DNA from: a phage
Reading direction: 5' to 3' (one strand)
Length of the DNA stretch: 64,000 nt
Sequence record: PX104379.1
In this document: positions 6,439 to 27,956 of the stretch, piece after piece
Numbering within the stretch: the first letter of the stretch is position 1
Layout: each line of letters starts with the position of its first letter
Notes under the pieces: generated by a model
What the model was told of the DNA's origin: nothing
The model's database searches: none
Seen by the model: only the letters and a program-made list of their open reading frames with translations
Position numbers and translations under genes: made by a program

Positions 6439-8004
6439 ATGACTATCAAAACTAAAGCTGAACTTTTGAACAAATGGAAGCCATTACTGGAAGGTGAAGG
6501 TTTACCGGAAATTGCTAATAGCAAACAAGCGATTATCGCTAAAATCTTTGAAAACCAGGAAAAAGATTTCCAGACAGCTCCGGAATATAAAGACGAAAAA
6601 ATTGCTCAGGCATTCGGTTCTTTCTTAACAGAAGCTGAAATTGGTGGTGACCATGGTTACAATGCTACCAACATCGCTGCAGGTCAGACTTCTGGCGCAG
6701 TAACCCAGATTGGCCCGGCTGTTATGGGTATGGTACGTCGTGCTATTCCTAACCTGATTGCTTTCGATATTTGCGGTGTTCAGCCGATGAACAGCCCGAC
6801 TGGTCAGGTATTCGCACTTCGTGCGGTATATGGTAAAGACCCAATCGCTTCCGGCGCTAAAGAAGCATTCCACCCAATGTATGGTCCAGATGCAATGTTC
6901 TCTGGTCAGGGTGCTGCTAAGAAATTCCCGGCTCTGGCTGCTGACACACAAACTACAGTAGGTGATATCTATACTCACTTCTTCCAGGAAACTGGTACTG
7001 TATATCTGCAAGCTTCTGCTCAAGTAACACTTGATTCAGGTGCAACTGATGCAGCTAAATTAGATGCTGAAATTAAGAAACAAATGGAAGCAGGTGCACT
7101 GGTAGAAATCGCTGAAGGCATGGCTACTTCTATCGCCGAACTTCAGGAAGGTTTTAACGGTTCTACCGATAACCCATGGAATGAAATGGGCTTCCGTATC
7201 GATAAACAAGTTATCGAAGCTAAATCTCGCCAGCTGAAAGCTGCTTACTCTATTGAATTAGCACAAGACCTCCGCGCTGTTCATGGTATGGATGCTGATG
7301 CTGAACTGTCTGGTATTCTGGCTACCGAAATTATGCTGGAAATCAACCGTGAAGTTGTTGATTGGATTAACTACTCTGCTCAGGTTGGTAAATCTGGTAT
7401 GACCCTGACTCCGGGTTCTAAAGCTGGTGTATTTGACTTCCAGGACCCAATCGATATTCGTGGTGCTCGCTGGGCGGGTGAATCCTTTAAAGCTCTGTTG
7501 TTCCAGATTGACAAAGAAGCAGTTGAAATTGCTCGTCAGACCGGTCGTGGTGAAGGTAACTTCATTATCGCTTCCCGTAACGTAGTTAACGTTCTGGCTT
7601 CAGTTGATACCGGCATTTCTTATGCTGCACAAGGTCTGGCTACCGGCTTTAACACTGATACTACCAAGTCAGTATTTGCTGGTGTTCTGGGTGGTAAATA
7701 CCGTGTATATATCGACCAGTATGCTAAACAGGATTATTTCACTGTAGGTTATAAAGGTCCGAACGAAATGGATGCTGGTATTTACTACGCTCCATATGTA
7801 GCTCTGACTCCACTGCGTGGTTCTGATCCGAAGAACTTCCAACCGGTAATGGGGTTCAAAACTCGTTACGGTATCGGTATCAACCCATTTGCAGAATCCG
7901 CTGCTCAGGCTCCGGCTTCTCGCATTCAGAGTGGTATGCCTTCTATCCTGAACAGCCTTGGTAAGAACGCTTACTTTAGACGTGTATATGTTAAAGGTAT
8001 CTAA
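6439..8004 (+). CDS. 23: Major capsid protein gp23
   Basis: 521-aa ORF, N-terminus MTIKTKAELLNKWKPLLEGEG as in T4 gp23. Confidence 0.97.
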   Translation: MTIKTKAELLNKWKPLLEGEGLPEIANSKQAIIAKIFENQEKDFQTAPEYKDEKIAQAFGSFLTEAEIGGDHGYNATNIAAGQTSGAVTQIGPAVMGMVRRAIPNLIAFDICGVQPMNSPTGQVFALRAVYGKDPIASGAKEAFHPMYGPDAMFSGQGAAKKFPALAADTQTTVGDIYTHFFQETGTVYLQASAQVTLDSGATDAAKLDAEIKKQMEAGALVEIAEGMATSIAELQEGFNGSTDNPWNEMGFRIDKQVIEAKSRQLKAAYSIELAQDLRAVHGMDADAELSGILATEIMLEINREVVDWINYSAQVGKSGMTLTPGSKAGVFDFQDPIDIRGARWAGESFKALLFQIDKEAVEIARQTGRGEGNFIIASRNVVNVLASVDTGISYAAQGLATGFNTDTTKSVFAGVLGGKYRVYIDQYAKQDYFTVGYKGPNEMDAGIYYAPYVALTPLRGSDPKNFQPVMGFKTRYGIGINPFAESAAQAPASRIQSGMPSILNSLGKNAYFRRVYVKGI

Positions 8005-8019
8005 TCTTTGACGATTTAA

Positions 8020-8040
8020 GGGACCTTCGGGTCCCTTTAG
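8020..8040 (+). terminator. Intrinsic terminator after gene 23
   Basis: GGGACC-TTCG-GGTCCC stem with UUCG tetraloop followed by TTT. Confidence 0.7.
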
Positions 8041-8052
8041 TTGTTTTTATGG

Positions 8053-8060
8053 TATAAATA
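8053..8060 (+). promoter_or_regulatory. T4-type late promoter TATAAATA upstream of gene 24
   Basis: Exact TATAAATA about 30 bp before ATG. Confidence 0.6.
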
Positions 8061-8087
8061 AATCATATAAACCAAAAGGAAAGCGCA

Positions 8088-9371
8088 ATGGCTAAAATCA
8101 ACGAACTTCTGCGCGAATCAACCACAACGAATAGCAACTCAATCGGTCGCCCAAATCTCGTTGCTTTGACTCGCGCTACCACTAAATTAATATATTCTGA
8201 CATTGTAGCAACGCAAAGAACTAATCAACCTGTTGCTGCTTTTTATGGTATCAAATACCTTAACCCAGACAACGAATTTACATTTAAAACTGGTGCTACT
8301 TATGCTGGCGAAGCTGGATATGTAGACCGAGAACAAATCACAGAATTAACAGAAGAGTCTAAATTAACTCTCAATAAAGGCGATTTATTCAAATATAATA
8401 ATATCGTTTATAAAGTATTAGAAGATACACCATTTGCTGATATTGAAGAAAGCGATTTAGAATTGGCTCTTCAGATTGCAATTGTTCTTTTAAAGGTTCG
8501 TCTATTTTCTGACGCAGCGTCAACAAGCAAATTTGAAAGCTCTGATAGTGAAATTGCGGATGCTAGATTCCAGATTAATAAATGGCAAACCGCAGTTAAA
8601 TCTCGCAAACTTAAAACTGGTATCACAGTTGAATTAGCACAAGATTTAGAAGCAAATGGATTCGATGCTCCTAATTTCTTGGAAGATTTGCTTGCAACTG
8701 AAATGGCAGATGAAATCAATAAAGATATTCTGCAGTCTTTGATTACAGTATCAAAACGTTATAAAGTTACAGGAATTACTGATACTGGATTCATTGATTT
8801 GAGTTATGCATCTGCACCTGAAGCTGGTCGTTCATTATACCGAATGGTATGTGAAATGGTTTCGCATATCCAAAAAGAATCAACTTATACAGCAACGTTC
8901 TGTGTTGCTTCTGCTCGTGCCGCTGCGATTCTTGCTGCATCTGGTTGGTTAAAACATAAACCAGAAGATGACAAGTATCTTTCACAAAATGCCTACGGGT
9001 TCTTAGCTAATGGTTTACCGCTTTATTGCGATACTAACAGCCCATTAGATTATGTAATCGTTGGCGTAGTAGAAAATATCGGTGAAAAAGAAATTGTTGG
9101 ATCAATTTTCTATGCTCCGTATACAGAAGGTCTTGACTTAGATGACCCTGAACATGTAGGTGCATTTAAAGTTGTAGTTGATCCAGAAAGTTTGCAGCCA
9201 TCTATCGGTTTATTAGTTAGATATGCTTTATCTGCAAATCCTTACACTGTAGCAAAAGATGAAAAAGAAGCAAGAATAATTGATGGTGGAGACATGGATA
9301 AAATGGCGGGTCGTTCAGATTTGTCTGTTTTATTAGGTGTTAAGCTACCAAAAATTATTGTTGATGAATAA
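8088..9371 (+). CDS. 24: Capsid vertex protein gp24
   Basis: 427-aa ORF after gene 23, gp23 paralogue by position and size. Confidence 0.93.
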   Translation: MAKINELLRESTTTNSNSIGRPNLVALTRATTKLIYSDIVATQRTNQPVAAFYGIKYLNPDNEFTFKTGATYAGEAGYVDREQITELTEESKLTLNKGDLFKYNNIVYKVLEDTPFADIEESDLELALQIAIVLLKVRLFSDAASTSKFESSDSEIADARFQINKWQTAVKSRKLKTGITVELAQDLEANGFDAPNFLEDLLATEMADEINKDILQSLITVSKRYKVTGITDTGFIDLSYASAPEAGRSLYRMVCEMVSHIQKESTYTATFCVASARAAAILAASGWLKHKPEDDKYLSQNAYGFLANGLPLYCDTNSPLDYVIVGVVENIGEKEIVGSIFYAPYTEGLDLDDPEHVGAFKVVVDPESLQPSIGLLVRYALSANPYTVAKDEKEARIIDGGDMDKMAGRSDLSVLLGVKLPKIIVDE

Positions 9372-9377
9372 AACAAA

Positions 9378-9400
9378 GGGACCTTTCGGTCCCTTTTTAT
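9378..9400. terminator. Bidirectional terminator between gene 24 and rnlB
   Basis: GGGACC-TTTC-GGTCCC followed by TTTTTAT; T-rich on both strands. Confidence 0.7.
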
Positions 9401-10405
9401 TTAACTTACCAATTCAATCCAAGCCGGACGAAGTACATCTTGTACCATTTTAACTAATTCCTTTTTAATCAAAGAAGGATTATCGGCTTGAGTTAAAGTA
9501 ATACCTTCACGAGAAGTTTCTTCCAAAATATCTTGAACAGTTAGTCCCATCACCTTTCCAAAATCTTTTGGACCAATTTCGCCAATTTTAGAAATAACGT
9601 TATTTACTCGGTTTAGTGTAACGTAACAAGCTAAAATCCCCACCAATTTGTTATCAGCTTCTGACAGTTCAACTTTAGCTTTAATAGGCTTATCAGACTT
9701 TTTCTTTTCACTAAATTTAGAATTCTTGCATTTGATGGCTACACGATTGCGATTAGGCAGCCAAGAAGGATAACAAGGTTTCAATACATATCCTTCAGCG
9801 GTAAATACTTCGCCTTTGGCTTCAGCTTTCCAAACACATTTGTTAGCGTCAATTAAACCTGCATTATCTACGGTAAAATTATAAGACGGAACAACAGAAT
9901 CCAAATCATTTGGAAGTTTAATAAGATCTTCAAATTTACCACGACCCAAAAGTGGAGCGATTTTAAACCCAAATGAATTACAAAACGATTCCATCATGTA
10001 ATCATCAACATAAGTTACATCACCACTTTCGGTAGTGACAATAATGTCAAATACATAAAAATCTTTATCGCCATAATCAACATTCTTCTGAATGCCAGGT
10101 CCAGCGAATTCGCCAAAAACTTGATAAGTCACAACAGCTGAAGTTTCCATAATTTCTTGGACAGCTTTAATAGAATCTTCGTAATTCTTTAAAATAATTT
10201 CATAACCGAAGAAATCTTCAGCAGGAAGAATCGGTCCAGTACGTTTAGCGCAAGTTACTTTATCACGCTCAATAATCAATGAGAAATTTGTGCCGTGAAT
10301 CTTTTCACGAGCTACCCATTCGCCGCTAGTCAATCCCAAGCTATAAAGTTTTTCAATAAATTTAAAGTTGTAATGATTTTCAAGACTGCTATACTTTTTA
10401 AACAT
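9401..10405 (-). CDS. rnlB: RNA ligase 2 (Rnl2)
   Basis: 334 aa; nucleotidyltransferase lysine motif KIHGTN near N-terminus; matches T4 Rnl2 as recalled. Confidence 0.9.
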
Positions 10406-23181: not shown

Positions 23182-23185
23182 CAAT

Positions 23186-23212
23186 GGGGACCTTTCGGTC
23201 CCCATATTTTTA
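23186..23212 (+). terminator. Terminator after gene 54
   Basis: GGGGACC-TTTC-GGTCCCC followed by ATATTTTTATTT. Confidence 0.7.
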
Positions 23213-23500
23213 TTTACGGAATGAAATAAAAGCAGCAACTGAAGCAACTAAACTGTCTTCAATATAAACCTCAATTTTTACCGGAGCTTCTGACTCAAAT
23301 TTACCTGTTACTACACCTTGGAAAATACTTTCAGTCTGTTCTGGCTTTGAAAAATTTTCAGAAGGAAAAATTCCGAACTTTTTATCTGTTCCAAAAATTT
23401 TGATAAATTCATCGTAAACTGCTTCATTAAAAGCATTATCAGCAGGAATAACGCCTTCAACTACAAGTTCTTGACCTAAAAAGCGTAAAGAAGATTTCAT
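23210..23500 (-). CDS. Hypothetical protein (position of T4 alt.-3)
   Basis: 96-aa ORF with early promoter and GAGGAA ribosome-binding site upstream. Confidence 0.55.
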   Translation of the reverse strand: MKSSLRFLGQELVVEGVIPADNAFNEAVYDEFIKIFGTDKKFGIFPSENFSKPEQTESIFQGVVTGKFESEAPVKIEVYIEDSLVASVAAFISFRK

Positions 23501-23531: not shown

Positions 23532-23561
23532 ACTATAACACAACACGAGGGACTTGTAAAC
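23532..23561 (-). promoter_or_regulatory. Early (sigma-70 type) promoter for alt.-3-position gene
   Basis: Minus strand GTTTACA, 17-nt spacer, TGnTATAGT extended -10, then GAGGAA and ATG. Confidence 0.55.
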
Positions 23562-25618
23562 TACATTTTGAACTTTTTAGACATTCCGTTGATGTTAACC
23601 AAAGAAGCCAAGATTTGAGAAACTTCGTTTTCCTCTTCTTTTGATTCTTCTACAAGGAATTGATTAAATCCAGTCATTGGACGAACTTCACCAGTTTCCA
23701 TCAAATGATCGCCATCATATACTGATTCTTCTAATTGCTCAGAAGGAGGAACGATTGTACCTTCGATTAGATACTTGTTATAAGCAGTTTCTTTCATAAA
23801 GTACGTACTTACTTTATTAATCTTCAGTAAAATTCCACGTGGTAGAATAACTTCAGCTTCTGATGGAAATCCTGATAAATGACCTGGAACGATAACTTTG
23901 ATTCGCTCAGCTCCTTTAATTACCATACCCACGCTAGTTTCAGCATCTTCATTAGCATATGTAGAATGACTACCCATATGCATCAAATCTTCTGCATCAA
24001 CAGAACCTTCTCCTTCACCAGAAAATACTGCGCCGGAATCATCTAGAGCCATATAGTTTTTACCATGCTCTCCGAAGATATTTGGTTTAAGTGATGTTGA
24101 TACGAAGTTCTTGAAATAGAACATTTTGTTTTCAATGTTATGACGCAAAGTTTTAAAGGTAACTTCTTGTCCACGATAAAGTGTAGTTCCTGGAGGAAGA
24201 ACTGAACCTTTAGCGAATGCAGAATCCAACGTCTCGATGTGCTTAATGGCACGTTCCATATATTCTTCACGGGTAGAATCTGGTTTACCCAAAAGGAACG
24301 AGTTCATTTCAACATATGAATCTGCGCAATAATCTTCAATTACATCAGATTCAGCTTGAGTTAATCCTTTTGGAGTTACTTCGGTGCTTGCGTATTCATA
24401 TGCCTGGGCAGCAGATTCATTAATCAATTTATAAATGCCATTCATTACAAATTGAATAATAGCTGTCTTTTCATCTGGCGTAGCTTTAGAACCTTTAACC
24501 AAATCATTGATAATTTTCTTAATAACATCAAAGCTATTAGAAATATTAATATCAGCAAGATCGCTTAAAATTTTATCAGTTTTATAATCAAAGAATTCTT
24601 TATTCTTTAAATATTCTTGAGAACCTTGATATGTTATATCGCTCTGCAACTTGATAGATGGATCACGTAAACGTGCATGGGCTAATGCAATATGATTTCG
24701 GAAGTTTTCTAGTTCGTAATCGCTAGATTTAAAACGAGAAGCACTTCTCATACCACCAATAGCTCCTTTGCTGAAGTTTGAACCAATCTGAATAACGCCA
24801 GAGTTCATTGGTCCTTCTGCTTTATACACCGGAACTTTAGATTCAAACTCTTGATATTTCTTAGCAGCGAAGCTATCACCCTGAAGTGAAGCATCGACAG
24901 TAGAATATTGAGCTTGTGCTGCTAATCGACGACTAATTTTAGTTTTCTGAATAACAGCTTGATCAGTGCGCTTATCATTTTCTAAAGCAATAGAAGCAGC
25001 AACAGCGACAGCTTTAGGAACAGCATTACCTGTTTTAACGTCTACATAAACATCACCAACCTTTGATTCAACTTTTGTGAATAACTCAGTTGAAATAGGA
25101 GGTACACCTGGAATGTCTTCTAAATTGGCATTTTTACGGTAAACCATAATATATGCATATTTCTTATCAAAGTCCCAGATTTCCTTTAAAAGAACATATC
25201 GACCTGCTCCTTTAGTACGTACTAAACGGTCAGCAATAACTTGCATTTGACGAGCAGCGCCATTTGTTTTACTCTTTAGTACGCGAAATAAGCATGCATC
25301 AATTTTATACTGTTTCATTGTTTGAAGAGCAGTATCAAAAACAGCATTAATGACGCCAATTGGATTTCCACCCAAGTTTTTAAGCTTAACTAACGATAAT
25401 TTCTCGTTGACACCTATCATTACGATATGCATCATTTTATCGCCTGGCTTAACGTTTTTATTCGTATCACCGCCAGAGGTGTATGTACAAAATCTAAATC
25501 CAGGAAGCACGCTTTCTTCACCGGCTTGAATAGCAAAAATTTGTGGTATTTTATGCTTAGGATTTAAGTTAACAACCGGCGCCGAAGCGCCGTCAAATAA
25601 TTCTGTAATAAGTTCCAT
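23561..25618 (-). CDS. Alt-family ADP-ribosyltransferase paralogue
   Basis: 685 aa; N-terminus MELITELFD shared with Alt; R-S-ExE type motifs YRGQ, NFVSTSL, EAEVILPRG. Confidence 0.85.
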   Translation of the reverse strand: MELITELFDGASAPVVNLNPKHKIPQIFAIQAGEESVLPGFRFCTYTSGGDTNKNVKPGDKMMHIVMIGVNEKLSLVKLKNLGGNPIGVINAVFDTALQTMKQYKIDACLFRVLKSKTNGAARQMQVIADRLVRTKGAGRYVLLKEIWDFDKKYAYIMVYRKNANLEDIPGVPPISTELFTKVESKVGDVYVDVKTGNAVPKAVAVAASIALENDKRTDQAVIQKTKISRRLAAQAQYSTVDASLQGDSFAAKKYQEFESKVPVYKAEGPMNSGVIQIGSNFSKGAIGGMRSASRFKSSDYELENFRNHIALAHARLRDPSIKLQSDITYQGSQEYLKNKEFFDYKTDKILSDLADINISNSFDVIKKIINDLVKGSKATPDEKTAIIQFVMNGIYKLINESAAQAYEYASTEVTPKGLTQAESDVIEDYCADSYVEMNSFLLGKPDSTREEYMERAIKHIETLDSAFAKGSVLPPGTTLYRGQEVTFKTLRHNIENKMFYFKNFVSTSLKPNIFGEHGKNYMALDDSGAVFSGEGEGSVDAEDLMHMGSHSTYANEDAETSVGMVIKGAERIKVIVPGHLSGFPSEAEVILPRGILLKINKVSTYFMKETAYNKYLIEGTIVPPSEQLEESVYDGDHLMETGEVRPMTGFNQFLVEESKEEENEVSQILASLVNINGMSKKFKM

Positions 25619-25621
25619 GAT

Positions 25622-27715
25622 TTATCCTTGAACGAACTTGTAAGGCATGTTTGTAATATCTATGCAAGACGCAATAATTCCAAGAGATGATTCTACTTTC
25701 TGTTTAACGTTTGATGAAACAAATGATGCAAAGTCAACTCTGTCTTCTATTTCAATATCACCTGTCATTGCAACCAATTCACCAGTTTCCATTAAATGGT
25801 CTCCGTCATAGATTACCGATTCGGTGAGTTCTTCGGTGGTCATAACTTCAGCTTGAATGAGTTTTGTATTATTAGACGTGGTTCCGTCATTATTAGAAGC
25901 ATCAGTTATTTTATTAACTTTGACCATCAATCCGCGCGGTAGAATAACTTCAGCTTCTGTTGCTATTCCGAGACTTCCTGGATATACAACATTAACTTTA
26001 TGAGCTCCATCAATTACCCATCCTATTTGAACTTTAACGTATTCAGGATTTTCTTTATACGCTCTTATTTCGTTTGGATTAATAGTTATTCCTTCTTCAT
26101 TTTTATCAACTGTCAATTCATTACGAGTTTCTGGTTCTAAAAGACCAATACCAGCATGTGTAATTCCAAAACGTCCAAAAATGATAGGAGTTAAAGAAGT
26201 AGATACAAAATTTCTGAAATAGAACACTTTATTTTTAACTAGTGCTTCGTATATAGGAGCAGTCATACTTTGAGCACGATAAACTGTGATGCCTTCCGGT
26301 ATGCGGTCACCATTTTCAAAAGCTGAATCTAAGTTATTTATAGCAGATTCAATTTCTTTTTCACTCATTACATCATATCGTTCTGGATTGTAACGACCTA
26401 AAAGAAGATTATTAATGTCAGTATATCCTGAACCACAATATTCTCTAATACCGCGCTTTTGTGATGGAGTATATTTAGAACCATCGCGGGCAATAGTAAT
26501 ATCAATCATTGGACCAGCACCAATTCCAGAAAAACTGTAAATCATTCGTTTGAGGAATTTAGTTTTTGCTGCGTTCCAGGAATTTTTAGTTATTTCTTCC
26601 CAGACTTCATCTGGTTGTCCTTTACGATTTTTATTATGATTAGCAAGCCATTTATCTTTATAATCTTCAAAGAATTGATTTACAGCTGCTGCGTATTTCT
26701 CTAAACATTTTATTGAAGTAGTTGGTTCATTTTTAATTGCATTAAAAATTACTTCTTTAATTTTTTCTGAAACTTCACCGACTTGACTCATTGGAAAGAA
26801 TTTATAATCATAGTGAAGTTCATCTGCCGTTCCTTCAGCAATAATTTTTGCTGCCTTTGTTTTAGAAGCTAATGAATTAATTCCAATTTTCATTTCTTCT
26901 GCTTCGGGAATTAAAGGTGCAGTAGCTGGTTTATTAAAATTAGCTGCTGTAGATTCATACTTTTGGAATAATTCACTTTCAAATCTAGAAGATTCCAATG
27001 ACTGACTCTGTGCAATTGCTCTACGGGAAATTTTAACTTTAACGATTACAGCTTGGTCAGAACGTTTATCGTTTTCTTGCGCAATAGATGCTGCAATTGC
27101 CTCATTTTTAGTTACTTGAGCTCCGGTATCTTTATTAATATAAACATCGCCGACCTTCGATTCAACTTTAGTAAAGAGCTCGGTACTAATTTCAGGAACT
27201 CCTGGAATGTCTTCTAGTGATACATTTTTGCGATGTATAAGAATATATGCATACTTTTTATCGTAATCCCAGAGTTCCTTAAGAAGGACGTATCTGCCAC
27301 CTGAACGACTACGGATAAGTCTATCAGCAATAACTTGAATTTGTCGAGCTTGGCCAGCAGTTTTAGACTTAAGAATACGAAGCATACAAGCATCAATTTT
27401 ATATTGACGCATTGTTTGCATTGCAACAGTAAAAACTGAATTGATATAATTAATTGGGCTTGGACCAAGACCTTTTAATTTAGCAATTGAACCTTTAGCA
27501 GTTAATGTAAAAGGAACAATATGCATCATTTTGTCGCCCATTTTTAAATCGCGATTAGTATCACCTCCAGATGTATAGGTACATAAACGAAAGCCTGGTT
27601 GTTCAATTGCATCATCAACATGAACTGAAAAAATTTGTGGTATTTTCTTCTTTGGATTTAAGTTTGTAATCGGAAGAGTAGTATCTTCGTCAAATAATTC
27701 TGTAATGAGTTCCAT
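25622..27715 (-). CDS. alt: Alt ADP-ribosyltransferase (head-packaged, injected)
   Basis: N-terminus MELITELFDEDTTLPITNL matches T4 Alt as recalled; motifs YRAQ, NFVSTSL, EAEVILPRG; late promoter upstream; exact start codon +/-1 nt uncertain. Confidence 0.9.
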   Translation of the reverse strand: MELITELFDEDTTLPITNLNPKKKIPQIFSVHVDDAIEQPGFRLCTYTSGGDTNRDLKMGDKMMHIVPFTLTAKGSIAKLKGLGPSPINYINSVFTVAMQTMRQYKIDACMLRILKSKTAGQARQIQVIADRLIRSRSGGRYVLLKELWDYDKKYAYILIHRKNVSLEDIPGVPEISTELFTKVESKVGDVYINKDTGAQVTKNEAIAASIAQENDKRSDQAVIVKVKISRRAIAQSQSLESSRFESELFQKYESTAANFNKPATAPLIPEAEEMKIGINSLASKTKAAKIIAEGTADELHYDYKFFPMSQVGEVSEKIKEVIFNAIKNEPTTSIKCLEKYAAAVNQFFEDYKDKWLANHNKNRKGQPDEVWEEITKNSWNAAKTKFLKRMIYSFSGIGAGPMIDITIARDGSKYTPSQKRGIREYCGSGYTDINNLLLGRYNPERYDVMSEKEIESAINNLDSAFENGDRIPEGITVYRAQSMTAPIYEALVKNKVFYFRNFVSTSLTPIIFGRFGITHAGIGLLEPETRNELTVDKNEEGITINPNEIRAYKENPEYVKVQIGWVIDGAHKVNVVYPGSLGIATEAEVILPRGLMVKVNKITDASNNDGTTSNNTKLIQAEVMTTEELTESVIYDGDHLMETGELVAMTGDIEIEDRVDFASFVSSNVKQKVESSLGIIASCIDITNMPYKFVQG

Positions 27716-27737
27716 CATATCCTCTCTAGTGTTTATT

Positions 27738-27745
27738 CTATTTAT
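27738..27745 (-). promoter_or_regulatory. T4-type late promoter upstream of alt
   Basis: TATAAATA on minus strand about 25 bp before alt ATG, followed by GAGAGGA. Confidence 0.6.
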
Positions 27746-27750
27746 AAAAT

Positions 27751-27768
27751 TAAAGGCCCGAAGGCCTT
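27751..27768 (-). terminator. Hairpin between ligase-side ORF and alt late promoter
   Basis: AAAGGCC-CGAA-GGCCTTT palindromic hairpin. Confidence 0.45.
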
Positions 27769-27956
27769 TAATAATCTATTGGTAAGAGAGTACGATATAT
27801 TTCAAACTTTGGACCTTTTTCATAGGCATCAAATGTTTCTGTGAATTTATTATAAGCATATGCATCTATAAATTCAATCATGATTTGTGATACAGAAGTA
27901 GAAACATCTCCACCTTCTTTTTGAGCCACGACAATTGTTTCTAAGTAAGCTTTCAT
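27768..27956 (-). CDS. Hypothetical protein, 62 aa
   Basis: ORF overlapping ligase start, between ligase and alt; no motif. Confidence 0.4.
   Translation of the reverse strand: MKAYLETIVVAQKEGGDVSTSVSQIMIEFIDAYAYNKFTETFDAYEKGPKFEIYRTLLPIDY

Follow-up and report, generated by a model that had tools for sequence, protein, structure and literature searches.

Known Alt enzymes and the two-gene alt locus

The gpAlt protein of phage T4 (NP_049811) is an arginine mono-ADP-ribosyltransferase that is packaged, injected and directed at RNA polymerase alpha (Arg265) and other host proteins. ModA and ModB of T4 are expressed early and lack the N-domain and the propeptides of Alt. Mass spectrometry of T4 virions has established that the gp21 protease cuts Alt after ITE-6 and LTE-619, leaving a mature protein of 68.2 kDa (PMC5694885), and ModA and ModB fall into the same R-S-E clade of ADP-ribosyltransferases (ARTs), in the same phage group as Alt (PMC5512222). 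The T4 reference record attributes the small genes alt.-1 and alt.-2 to a duplication of the initial part of alt, and Nolan et al. (2006) listed them, together with a full-length alt duplicate in phage 44RR, as alt paralogues (PMC1524935). The stretch analysed here, 64,000 nucleotides of phage record PX104379.1 (the window), is a segment of a Tequatrovirus (T-even) genome. On its minus strand lie two adjoining open reading frames (ORFs), ORF-B and ORF-A (Table 1), which both encode full-length Alt-type proteins, as an earlier reading of the letters alone (the sequence-only reading) had proposed.

The interpretation favoured here, with a probability of about 0.72, is that the locus is a late operon of two genes for Alt-type ARTs that would be packaged, trimmed and injected and would act on different host targets, and that the pair is ancient, T4 having lost ORF-A. 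Both proteins would be made late from a single TATAAATA promoter and would enter the prohead core, where gp21 would trim both ends to leave products of about 69 and 70 kDa; the mature proteins would be injected with the DNA, and ORF-A and ORF-B would then ADP-ribosylate different sets of host proteins. The proposed plan is common to both: a MELITE propeptide cut after Glu6, an alpha/beta N-domain of about 230 residues, a helical centre of about 180 residues, a C3/VIP2/Vis-like R-S-ExE domain, and a C-terminal propeptide of 54-65 residues cut after L-x-E.

Gene integrity and selection

ORF-A consists of 685 uninterrupted codons in all seven genomes compared, namely the window, WL-3, Ac3, ime09, RB3, ESh28 and ESh31. 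Across the 21 genome pairs, the ratio of nonsynonymous to synonymous substitution rates (dN/dS) ranges from 0.014 to 0.089 for ORF-A, with synonymous divergence (dS) of up to 0.27, and from 0.013 to 0.096 for ORF-B, so that the two genes are indistinguishable in constraint. For ORF-A and ORF-B respectively, dN/dS is 0.015 and 0.006 in the N-domain, 0.074 and 0.108 in the centre, 0.039 and 0.016 in the ART domain, and 0.039 and 0.079 in the C-propeptide, remaining at or below 0.11 in every domain of both genes. None of the marks of a pseudogene, whether a broken frame, truncation or relaxed selection, is found in ORF-A, and the frameshift and deletion of T4 are absent from it. ORF-A is a live gene under strong purifying selection.

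The start of ORF-B is less straightforward, as two in-frame ATGs stand in tandem (ATGATG, 27713-27718, minus strand), in a sequence context reading GAGAGG-AT-ATG-ATG. Initiation at the first, at 27718, would yield 698 residues beginning MMELITE. The second ATG (27715), giving MELITE, is the better fit to the spacing of the Shine-Dalgarno sequence and to the way the gene is annotated in T4 and in most related records, and the ITE-6 numbering of the published T4 Alt site presumes it (PMC5694885). Among the lengths given in the sequence-only reading, 685 amino acids for ORF-A therefore stands, whereas 698 for ORF-B is too long by one codon, 697 being favoured.

Catalytic domain and family assignment

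Both proteins score above the gathering cut-off of 23.4 bits for Pfam PF03496 ADPrib_exo_Tox, ORF-A with 71.9 bits (E = 5.8e-20) and ORF-B with 129.6 bits (E = 1.2e-37), and both cover phrog_802, 'Alt-like RNA polymerase ADP-ribosyltransferase', from end to end (5e-257 and 1.5e-273). The motifs quoted in the sequence-only reading are all present: MELITELFD, NFVSTSL and EAEVILPRG in both proteins, YRGQ in ORF-A and YRAQ in ORF-B. The R-S-ExE set is intact in each, and neither gene misses any catalytic residue, the Glu and Arg of ORF-A included. In an alignment of 15 family members, R482, S507, S509, E587 and E589 (ORF-A numbering) occur without variation. The profile built from this alignment matches C3cer, CPILE-a/BECa, Certhrax, Vis and CDTa in the PDB, placing the Arg of YRG and the E-x-E on the catalytic Arg and the Q/E-x-E of C3cer (4xsg) and CPILE-a (5gtt), and the elements of the ART fold, a split beta-sandwich and an N-terminal helical lobe, are found. 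By these comparisons both proteins are Alt-type ARTs of the R-S-E clade, with predicted arginine-specific mono-ADP-ribosyl transfer. Identity to the C3-like toxins, Vis and the binary toxins (VIP2, iota Ia, CDTa and CPILE-a) is only 14-26%, and unlike these toxins Alt has about 415 extra N-terminal residues and two propeptides for a phage protease.

Other searches returned little. Full-length ORF-A, searched as a single sequence against PDB chains, gave no match at E <= 0.01, and no NCBIfam model was found for ORF-A or ORF-B. The N-domain and the centre, searched alone, yielded only the sub-threshold hits CesA (E = 0.021) and Noc2 in Pfam, and chance-level matches such as Mdm2 (E > 0.5) in the PDB. 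Homologues carry the precomputed Pfam label PF26846.

Divergence between the two proteins

ORF-A and ORF-B are 41% identical over their full length (E = 5e-164), and this identity is unevenly spread: 68% in the N-domain (residues 1-235, ORF-A numbering), 35% in the ART domain and 47% in the C-propeptide, with 18% in a centre (residues 236-415, about 180 residues) that cannot be aligned. Compared as profiles with hhalign, the two centre classes gave a probability below 1% (E = 0.083), so no homology is detectable there. The earlier judgement that the central regions are diverged and the genes distinct paralogues is thus borne out. AlphaFold (AF2) models of ORF-A and ORF-B, with predicted local distance difference test (pLDDT) scores of 76.9 and 73.6 and predicted template modelling (pTM) scores of 0.70 and 0.55, share one layout: an alpha/beta N-domain at about 1-200, an all-helical part at about 200-470, a beta-rich ART core at about 480-625, and a tail modelled with low confidence. 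Helical structure is predicted for both centres despite the absence of detectable homology. The tail falls below pLDDT 50 from about residue 630, the predicted C-terminal cleavage site, in ORF-A and from about 651 in ORF-B.

T4 Alt stands in a different relation to each protein. ORF-B is its positional orthologue, situated between alt.1 and the alt.-x genes behind the same late promoter, and the two agree by 100% in the N-domain and 97% in the C-propeptide, yet they differ by 67% in the centre (33% identity) and by 35% in the ART domain (65% identity). ORF-A shares the whole architecture of T4 Alt, with the MELITE propeptide, the LxE C-terminal site and R-S-ExE, and BLASTP aligns the two collinearly over residues 1-683 (6e-163); however, overall identity is 41%, and the centre of ORF-A has no detectable homology to that of the ORF-B class, T4 Alt included.

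Predicted gp21 processing

Both cleavage positions mapped in T4 Alt are conserved in the sequences of ORF-A and ORF-B. All three proteins, ORF-A, ORF-B and T4 Alt, have MELITE|L, and E6 does not vary among the 15 family members, in agreement with the proposal of the sequence-only reading that the N-terminal MELITE(LFD) segment is a gp21 target and with the published ITE-6 site (PMC5694885). For the C-terminal site, the rule [L/I/M]-x-E followed by S..YDGD returns exactly E619 and 68.2 kDa when applied to T4 Alt. In the 15 sequences the P1 Glu of this site is invariant, P3 is L, I or M throughout, and the YDGD..ETGE of the C-propeptide does not vary. The sites predicted by this rule for the two proteins, with their mature products, are listed in Table 1. 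This C-terminal site (LTE-632/LEE-631) had been overlooked in the sequence-only reading.

Expression of the alt unit

An exact T4-type late promoter, TATAAATA, lies about 20 nucleotides upstream of the ORF-B start and is the only late promoter positioned for both ORF-B and ORF-A. It is unchanged in T4, T2, RB3, ime09, Ac3, WL-3, phiD1 and VEc20, and CATAAATA occupies the same spot in Dhakavirus JS10. Upstream of it, a stem-loop immediately after the alt.1 stop codon is kept in all loci compared, JS10 included, and the annotation of phage Ac3 lists it as a terminator; this terminator-like element sets the late alt unit apart from the early/middle unit upstream.

The ORF-B stop codon TAA (25622-25624) is separated from the ORF-A ATG by 3 nucleotides, and a Shine-Dalgarno sequence for ORF-A, annotated as a ribosome-binding site at the same position in Ac3, adjoins this stop. 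Such an arrangement suggests a bicistronic and possibly translationally coupled pair. No terminator-like site was found in the sequence between the two genes. Since TATAAATA precedes ORF-B, the gap is so short, ORF-A has its own Shine-Dalgarno sequence and no terminator intervenes, both genes are probably expressed late, co-transcribed as a bicistron from the single promoter. A second occurrence of TATAAATA, within ORF-B (26335-26342), was considered as a late promoter for ORF-A and rejected, because it is accounted for by the codons for A-I-N-N and lacks conservation: synonymous or near-synonymous changes have removed it in RB3, VEc20 and T4.

Prevalence and the T4 remnant

The two-gene locus is present at no less than 80% coverage in 380 phage records, and full-length ORF-A at no less than 95% amino-acid identity in 397; the T4-type arrangement occurs in only about 91 records. 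The pair is found in T2, RB3, RB18, ime09 and phiD1. In RefSeq both genes bear the name 'Alt-like RNA polymerase ADP-ribosyltransferase', and the second gene is labelled alt.-2 in RB3 and ime09, 'hypothetical protein; alt.-1' in T2 and g200 in phiD1 (fD1), where ORF-B corresponds to g201. In JS10 the tandem pair has been annotated as alta/altb since 2008. The pairs of JS10, T2, RB3, RB18, ime09 and phiD1 match the window in tandem order, gene sizes, alt.1 upstream and alt.-3 downstream, ORF-A is matched at 97-99.7% identity by the second gene in about 400 Tequatrovirus records, and nothing of substance sets the window apart from JS10/T2/RB3-type pairs, of which it is another member. Two intact Alt genes are therefore the usual and already known T-even state, and T4 is the exception that has lost its second copy. 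The sequence-only reading had held an intact second paralogue to be noteworthy. This is not supported, since the pair, already annotated, is the majority state of Tequatrovirus, at about 380-400 records compared with about 91 of the T4 type. As a genome feature the pair offers nothing new, and the annotations of hundreds of public T-even genomes include it; what is corrected is the default view derived from T4, two Alt-type enzymes being the common T-even state. The literature searched contained no paper testing a second Alt biochemically or in virions, only the remark of Nolan et al.

The T4 record does contain one intact alt with alt.-1 and alt.-2 stubs beside it, as had been stated in the sequence-only reading. 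In the T4 locus extract used for comparison, alt.-2/alt.-1 lie at 7066-7451 and alt at 7455-9503. Window positions of about 23581-25270, corresponding to ORF-A codons of about 117-680, are absent from T4, and imperfect 8-nucleotide direct repeats, CTTTTTAG and CTCTTTAG, flank this 1.69-kilobase T4-type deletion. The second gene of T4, the one deleted genome examined at sequence level, is also frameshifted after codon 54 or so, unlike the intact ORF-A of the window. T4 alt.-1 (NP_049810) and alt.-2 (NP_049809) correspond to the first 115 or so codons of the ORF-A orthologue, and their families phrog_23015 and phrog_15247 match ORF-A (2e-40 and 3e-38) more strongly than ORF-B (1e-21 and 2e-19). 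Given the frameshift and the 1.69-kilobase deletion, the stubs are the wreck of a full-length second gene, and they are better read, from their sequence, as the remnant of a full-length paralogue than as a partial duplication. Stub ORFs of alt.-1/alt.-2 size also occur in VEc20 alongside a T2-type alt allele, and the lesion therefore appears to have spread or recombined across alt alleles.

Age, concerted evolution and mosaic alleles

Domain-wise trees place ORF-B beside JS10 alta (ART domain 94% identical, centre 67%) and ORF-A beside JS10 altb (56% and 44%), which indicates that the duplication is older than the split between Tequatrovirus and Dhakavirus. The N-domains instead cluster by genome, with 68% identity between ORF-A and ORF-B, 65% between JS10 alta and altb, and 42-46% across the genera, a pattern indicating that they evolve in concert within genomes. 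Three chimeric homologues of the ORF-A type (P0003, P0005 and P0007) are of the ORF-B type over their first 50, 175 or 225 residues, approximately, and these differing breakpoints point to repeated gene conversion between the N-domains of the tandem paralogues.

The alt orthologue is also mosaic in itself, the T4 allele differing from that of T2 and the majority. The centre and ART domain of ORF-B are about 80% identical in nucleotides to JS10 alta over 1.27 kilobases, against about 67% in the flanks. Because centre and catalytic module differ, the biochemistry of T4 Alt may not transfer to T2 and most of its relatives.

Roles proposed for the second Alt protein

The favoured interpretation, a packaged and injected pair with separate targets, assigns different substrates to ORF-A and ORF-B because their centres are unrelated and their catalytic modules only 35% identical. 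Several points weigh against it. The difference in substrates, and the virion packaging, cleavage and enzymatic activity of ORF-A, are predictions from sequence. ORF-A scores below ORF-B on PF03496. The L/I-x-E motif is short, with 7-11 copies in each protein, so that the site call relies on conserved position relative to the mapped sites and not on the motif. Finally, ORF-A has been lost in T4 and about 90 relatives, and is thus dispensable on laboratory hosts.

A tentative proposal, held at slightly less than even odds, describes the alt locus as a two-slot polymorphic locus for injected effectors. A genome-specific N-domain serving incorporation into the head, kept uniform between the two copies by gene conversion, would be combined with swappable cassettes of centre and ART domain, and the altb slot would encode an ART with host targets other than those of Alt, possibly a defence component. 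The cassette classes, held to be old, comprise the T4 type, the T2/JS10-alta type, the altb type, the P0016/P0019 type and the P0013-15 type, which are mutually unalignable or strongly diverged. If this proposal were true, an effector would have been wholly missed by work on T4, because T4 deleted altb.

It is also conceivable, though rather unlikely, that ORF-A is packaged mainly for counter-defence, modifying host immunity or toxin proteins and not RNA polymerase, with a variable centre that tracks the diversity of host defences. Constraint is weakest in the centre (dN/dS 0.07-0.11), several centre classes that are mutually unalignable or highly diverged exist among related phages, the phages can do without the gene on laboratory strains, and Ip1-3, other injected proteins of T-even phages, counter restriction in a subtype-specific way (PMC12373910). 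Within one allele class, however, the centre is under purifying and not diversifying selection.

That ORF-A might be an active ART that is never packaged, acting late in the producing cell with a timing nearer to ModA/ModB than to Alt, would suit its downstream place in the operon and its want of a late promoter of its own. ORF-A nevertheless keeps the exact MELITE, a highly conserved N-domain with a dN/dS of 0.015 and, at the C-terminus, LxE with its YDGD..ETGE propeptide, and these are the parts that are processed or associated with packaging in T4 Alt. The N-domain, moreover, is kept Alt-like genome by genome, gene-conversion chimeras included, which fits a shared interaction with the head core and makes an unpackaged enzyme improbable.

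The idea that ORF-A is a redundant or decaying alt duplicate on its way to the alt.-1/alt.-2 state of T4 has in its favour that T4 and about 91 records have lost the gene and remain viable and that its Pfam ART score is weaker, yet it is scarcely credible and already largely refuted by the selection analysis, given a frame intact in about 400 records at no less than 95% amino-acid identity, constraint equal to that of alt in every domain (dN/dS 0.014-0.089 with dS up to 0.27), invariant catalytic and cleavage-site residues, and a lineage that predates the genus split (the JS10 altb orthologue).

Should ORF-A be an injected effector with targets of its own, as the favoured interpretation of a packaged pair holds, it would bear on host takeover and on which hosts therapeutic T4-like phages can infect.

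Genomic surroundings

The neighbourhood follows the T4 order: genes 29-48-54, alt.-3, the two large ORFs, alt.1 and gene 30. The alt locus is closest to that of RB18 (98.1%), and a separate stretch of 24 kilobases is 96.7% identical to phage GiZh; no identical copy of the two-gene alt locus was present among the phage records searched.

Table 1. Features of the alt locus and its surroundings, in window positions
Feature	Position	Strand	Remarks
ORF-B	25622..27715	minus	T4 alt orthologue, lineage 'alta', 697 amino acids from second ATG
ORF-B catalytic set	YRAQ 26270-26281; S-T-S 26195-26203; E-A-E 25949-25957	minus	Y479-R480; S505-T-S507; E587-A-E589
ORF-B predicted gp21 sites	ITE-6 27698-27706; LTE-632 25820-25828	minus	predicted mature 7-632, 70.2 kDa
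ORF-A	23561..25618	minus	second full-length Alt paralogue, 685 amino acids, lineage 'altb'; 'alt.-2' in RB3, ime09
ORF-A N-domain	24914-25618	minus	
ORF-A helical centre	24374-24913	minus	
ORF-A ART domain	23759-24373	minus	
ORF-A C-propeptide	23564-23725	minus	
ORF-A catalytic set	YRGQ 24167-24178; S-T-S 24092-24100; E-A-E 23852-23860	minus	Y481-R482; S507-T-S509; E587-A-E589
ORF-A predicted gp21 sites	ITE-6 25601-25609; LEE-631 23726-23734	minus	predicted mature 7-631, 69.1 kDa
T4-type late promoter TATAAATA	27739..27746	minus	exact match
Stem-loop AAAGGCC-TTCG-GGCCTTT	27752..27769	minus	terminator-like
Shine-Dalgarno AAGGA of ORF-A	25625..25629	minus	
Deletion repeat, left copy CTTTTTAG	23573..23580	plus	blastn of window against T4 and junction alignment
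Deletion repeat, right copy CTCTTTAG	25263..25270	plus	blastn of window against T4 and junction alignment
alt.1 orthologue	27768-27956	minus	62 amino acids; Pfam PF24647 'Phage blade protein', 7.5e-29
alt.-3 orthologue	23210-23500	minus	96 amino acids; Pfam DUF5498; downstream of ORF-A
Early-type promoter of alt.-3, GTTTAC-N17-TATAGT	23560-23532	minus	
Bidirectional terminator-like stem	23184-23205	both	perfect 9-base-pair stem, ATGGGGACC-GAAA-GGTCCCCAT

At the upstream side, alt.1 and the end of the DNA ligase gene overlap in the ATGA manner (27953-27956). Downstream of ORF-A, one public annotation labels the neighbourhood of alt.-3 a 'putative toxin', and mutants of T4 Alt.-3 with a C-terminal extension stabilise the CmdA antitoxin and so escape the CmdTAC defence (bioRxiv 10.1101/2024.02.24.581662). 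The bidirectional stem, annotated as a terminator in Ac3, sits between the convergent genes 54 and alt.-3 and closes the unit.

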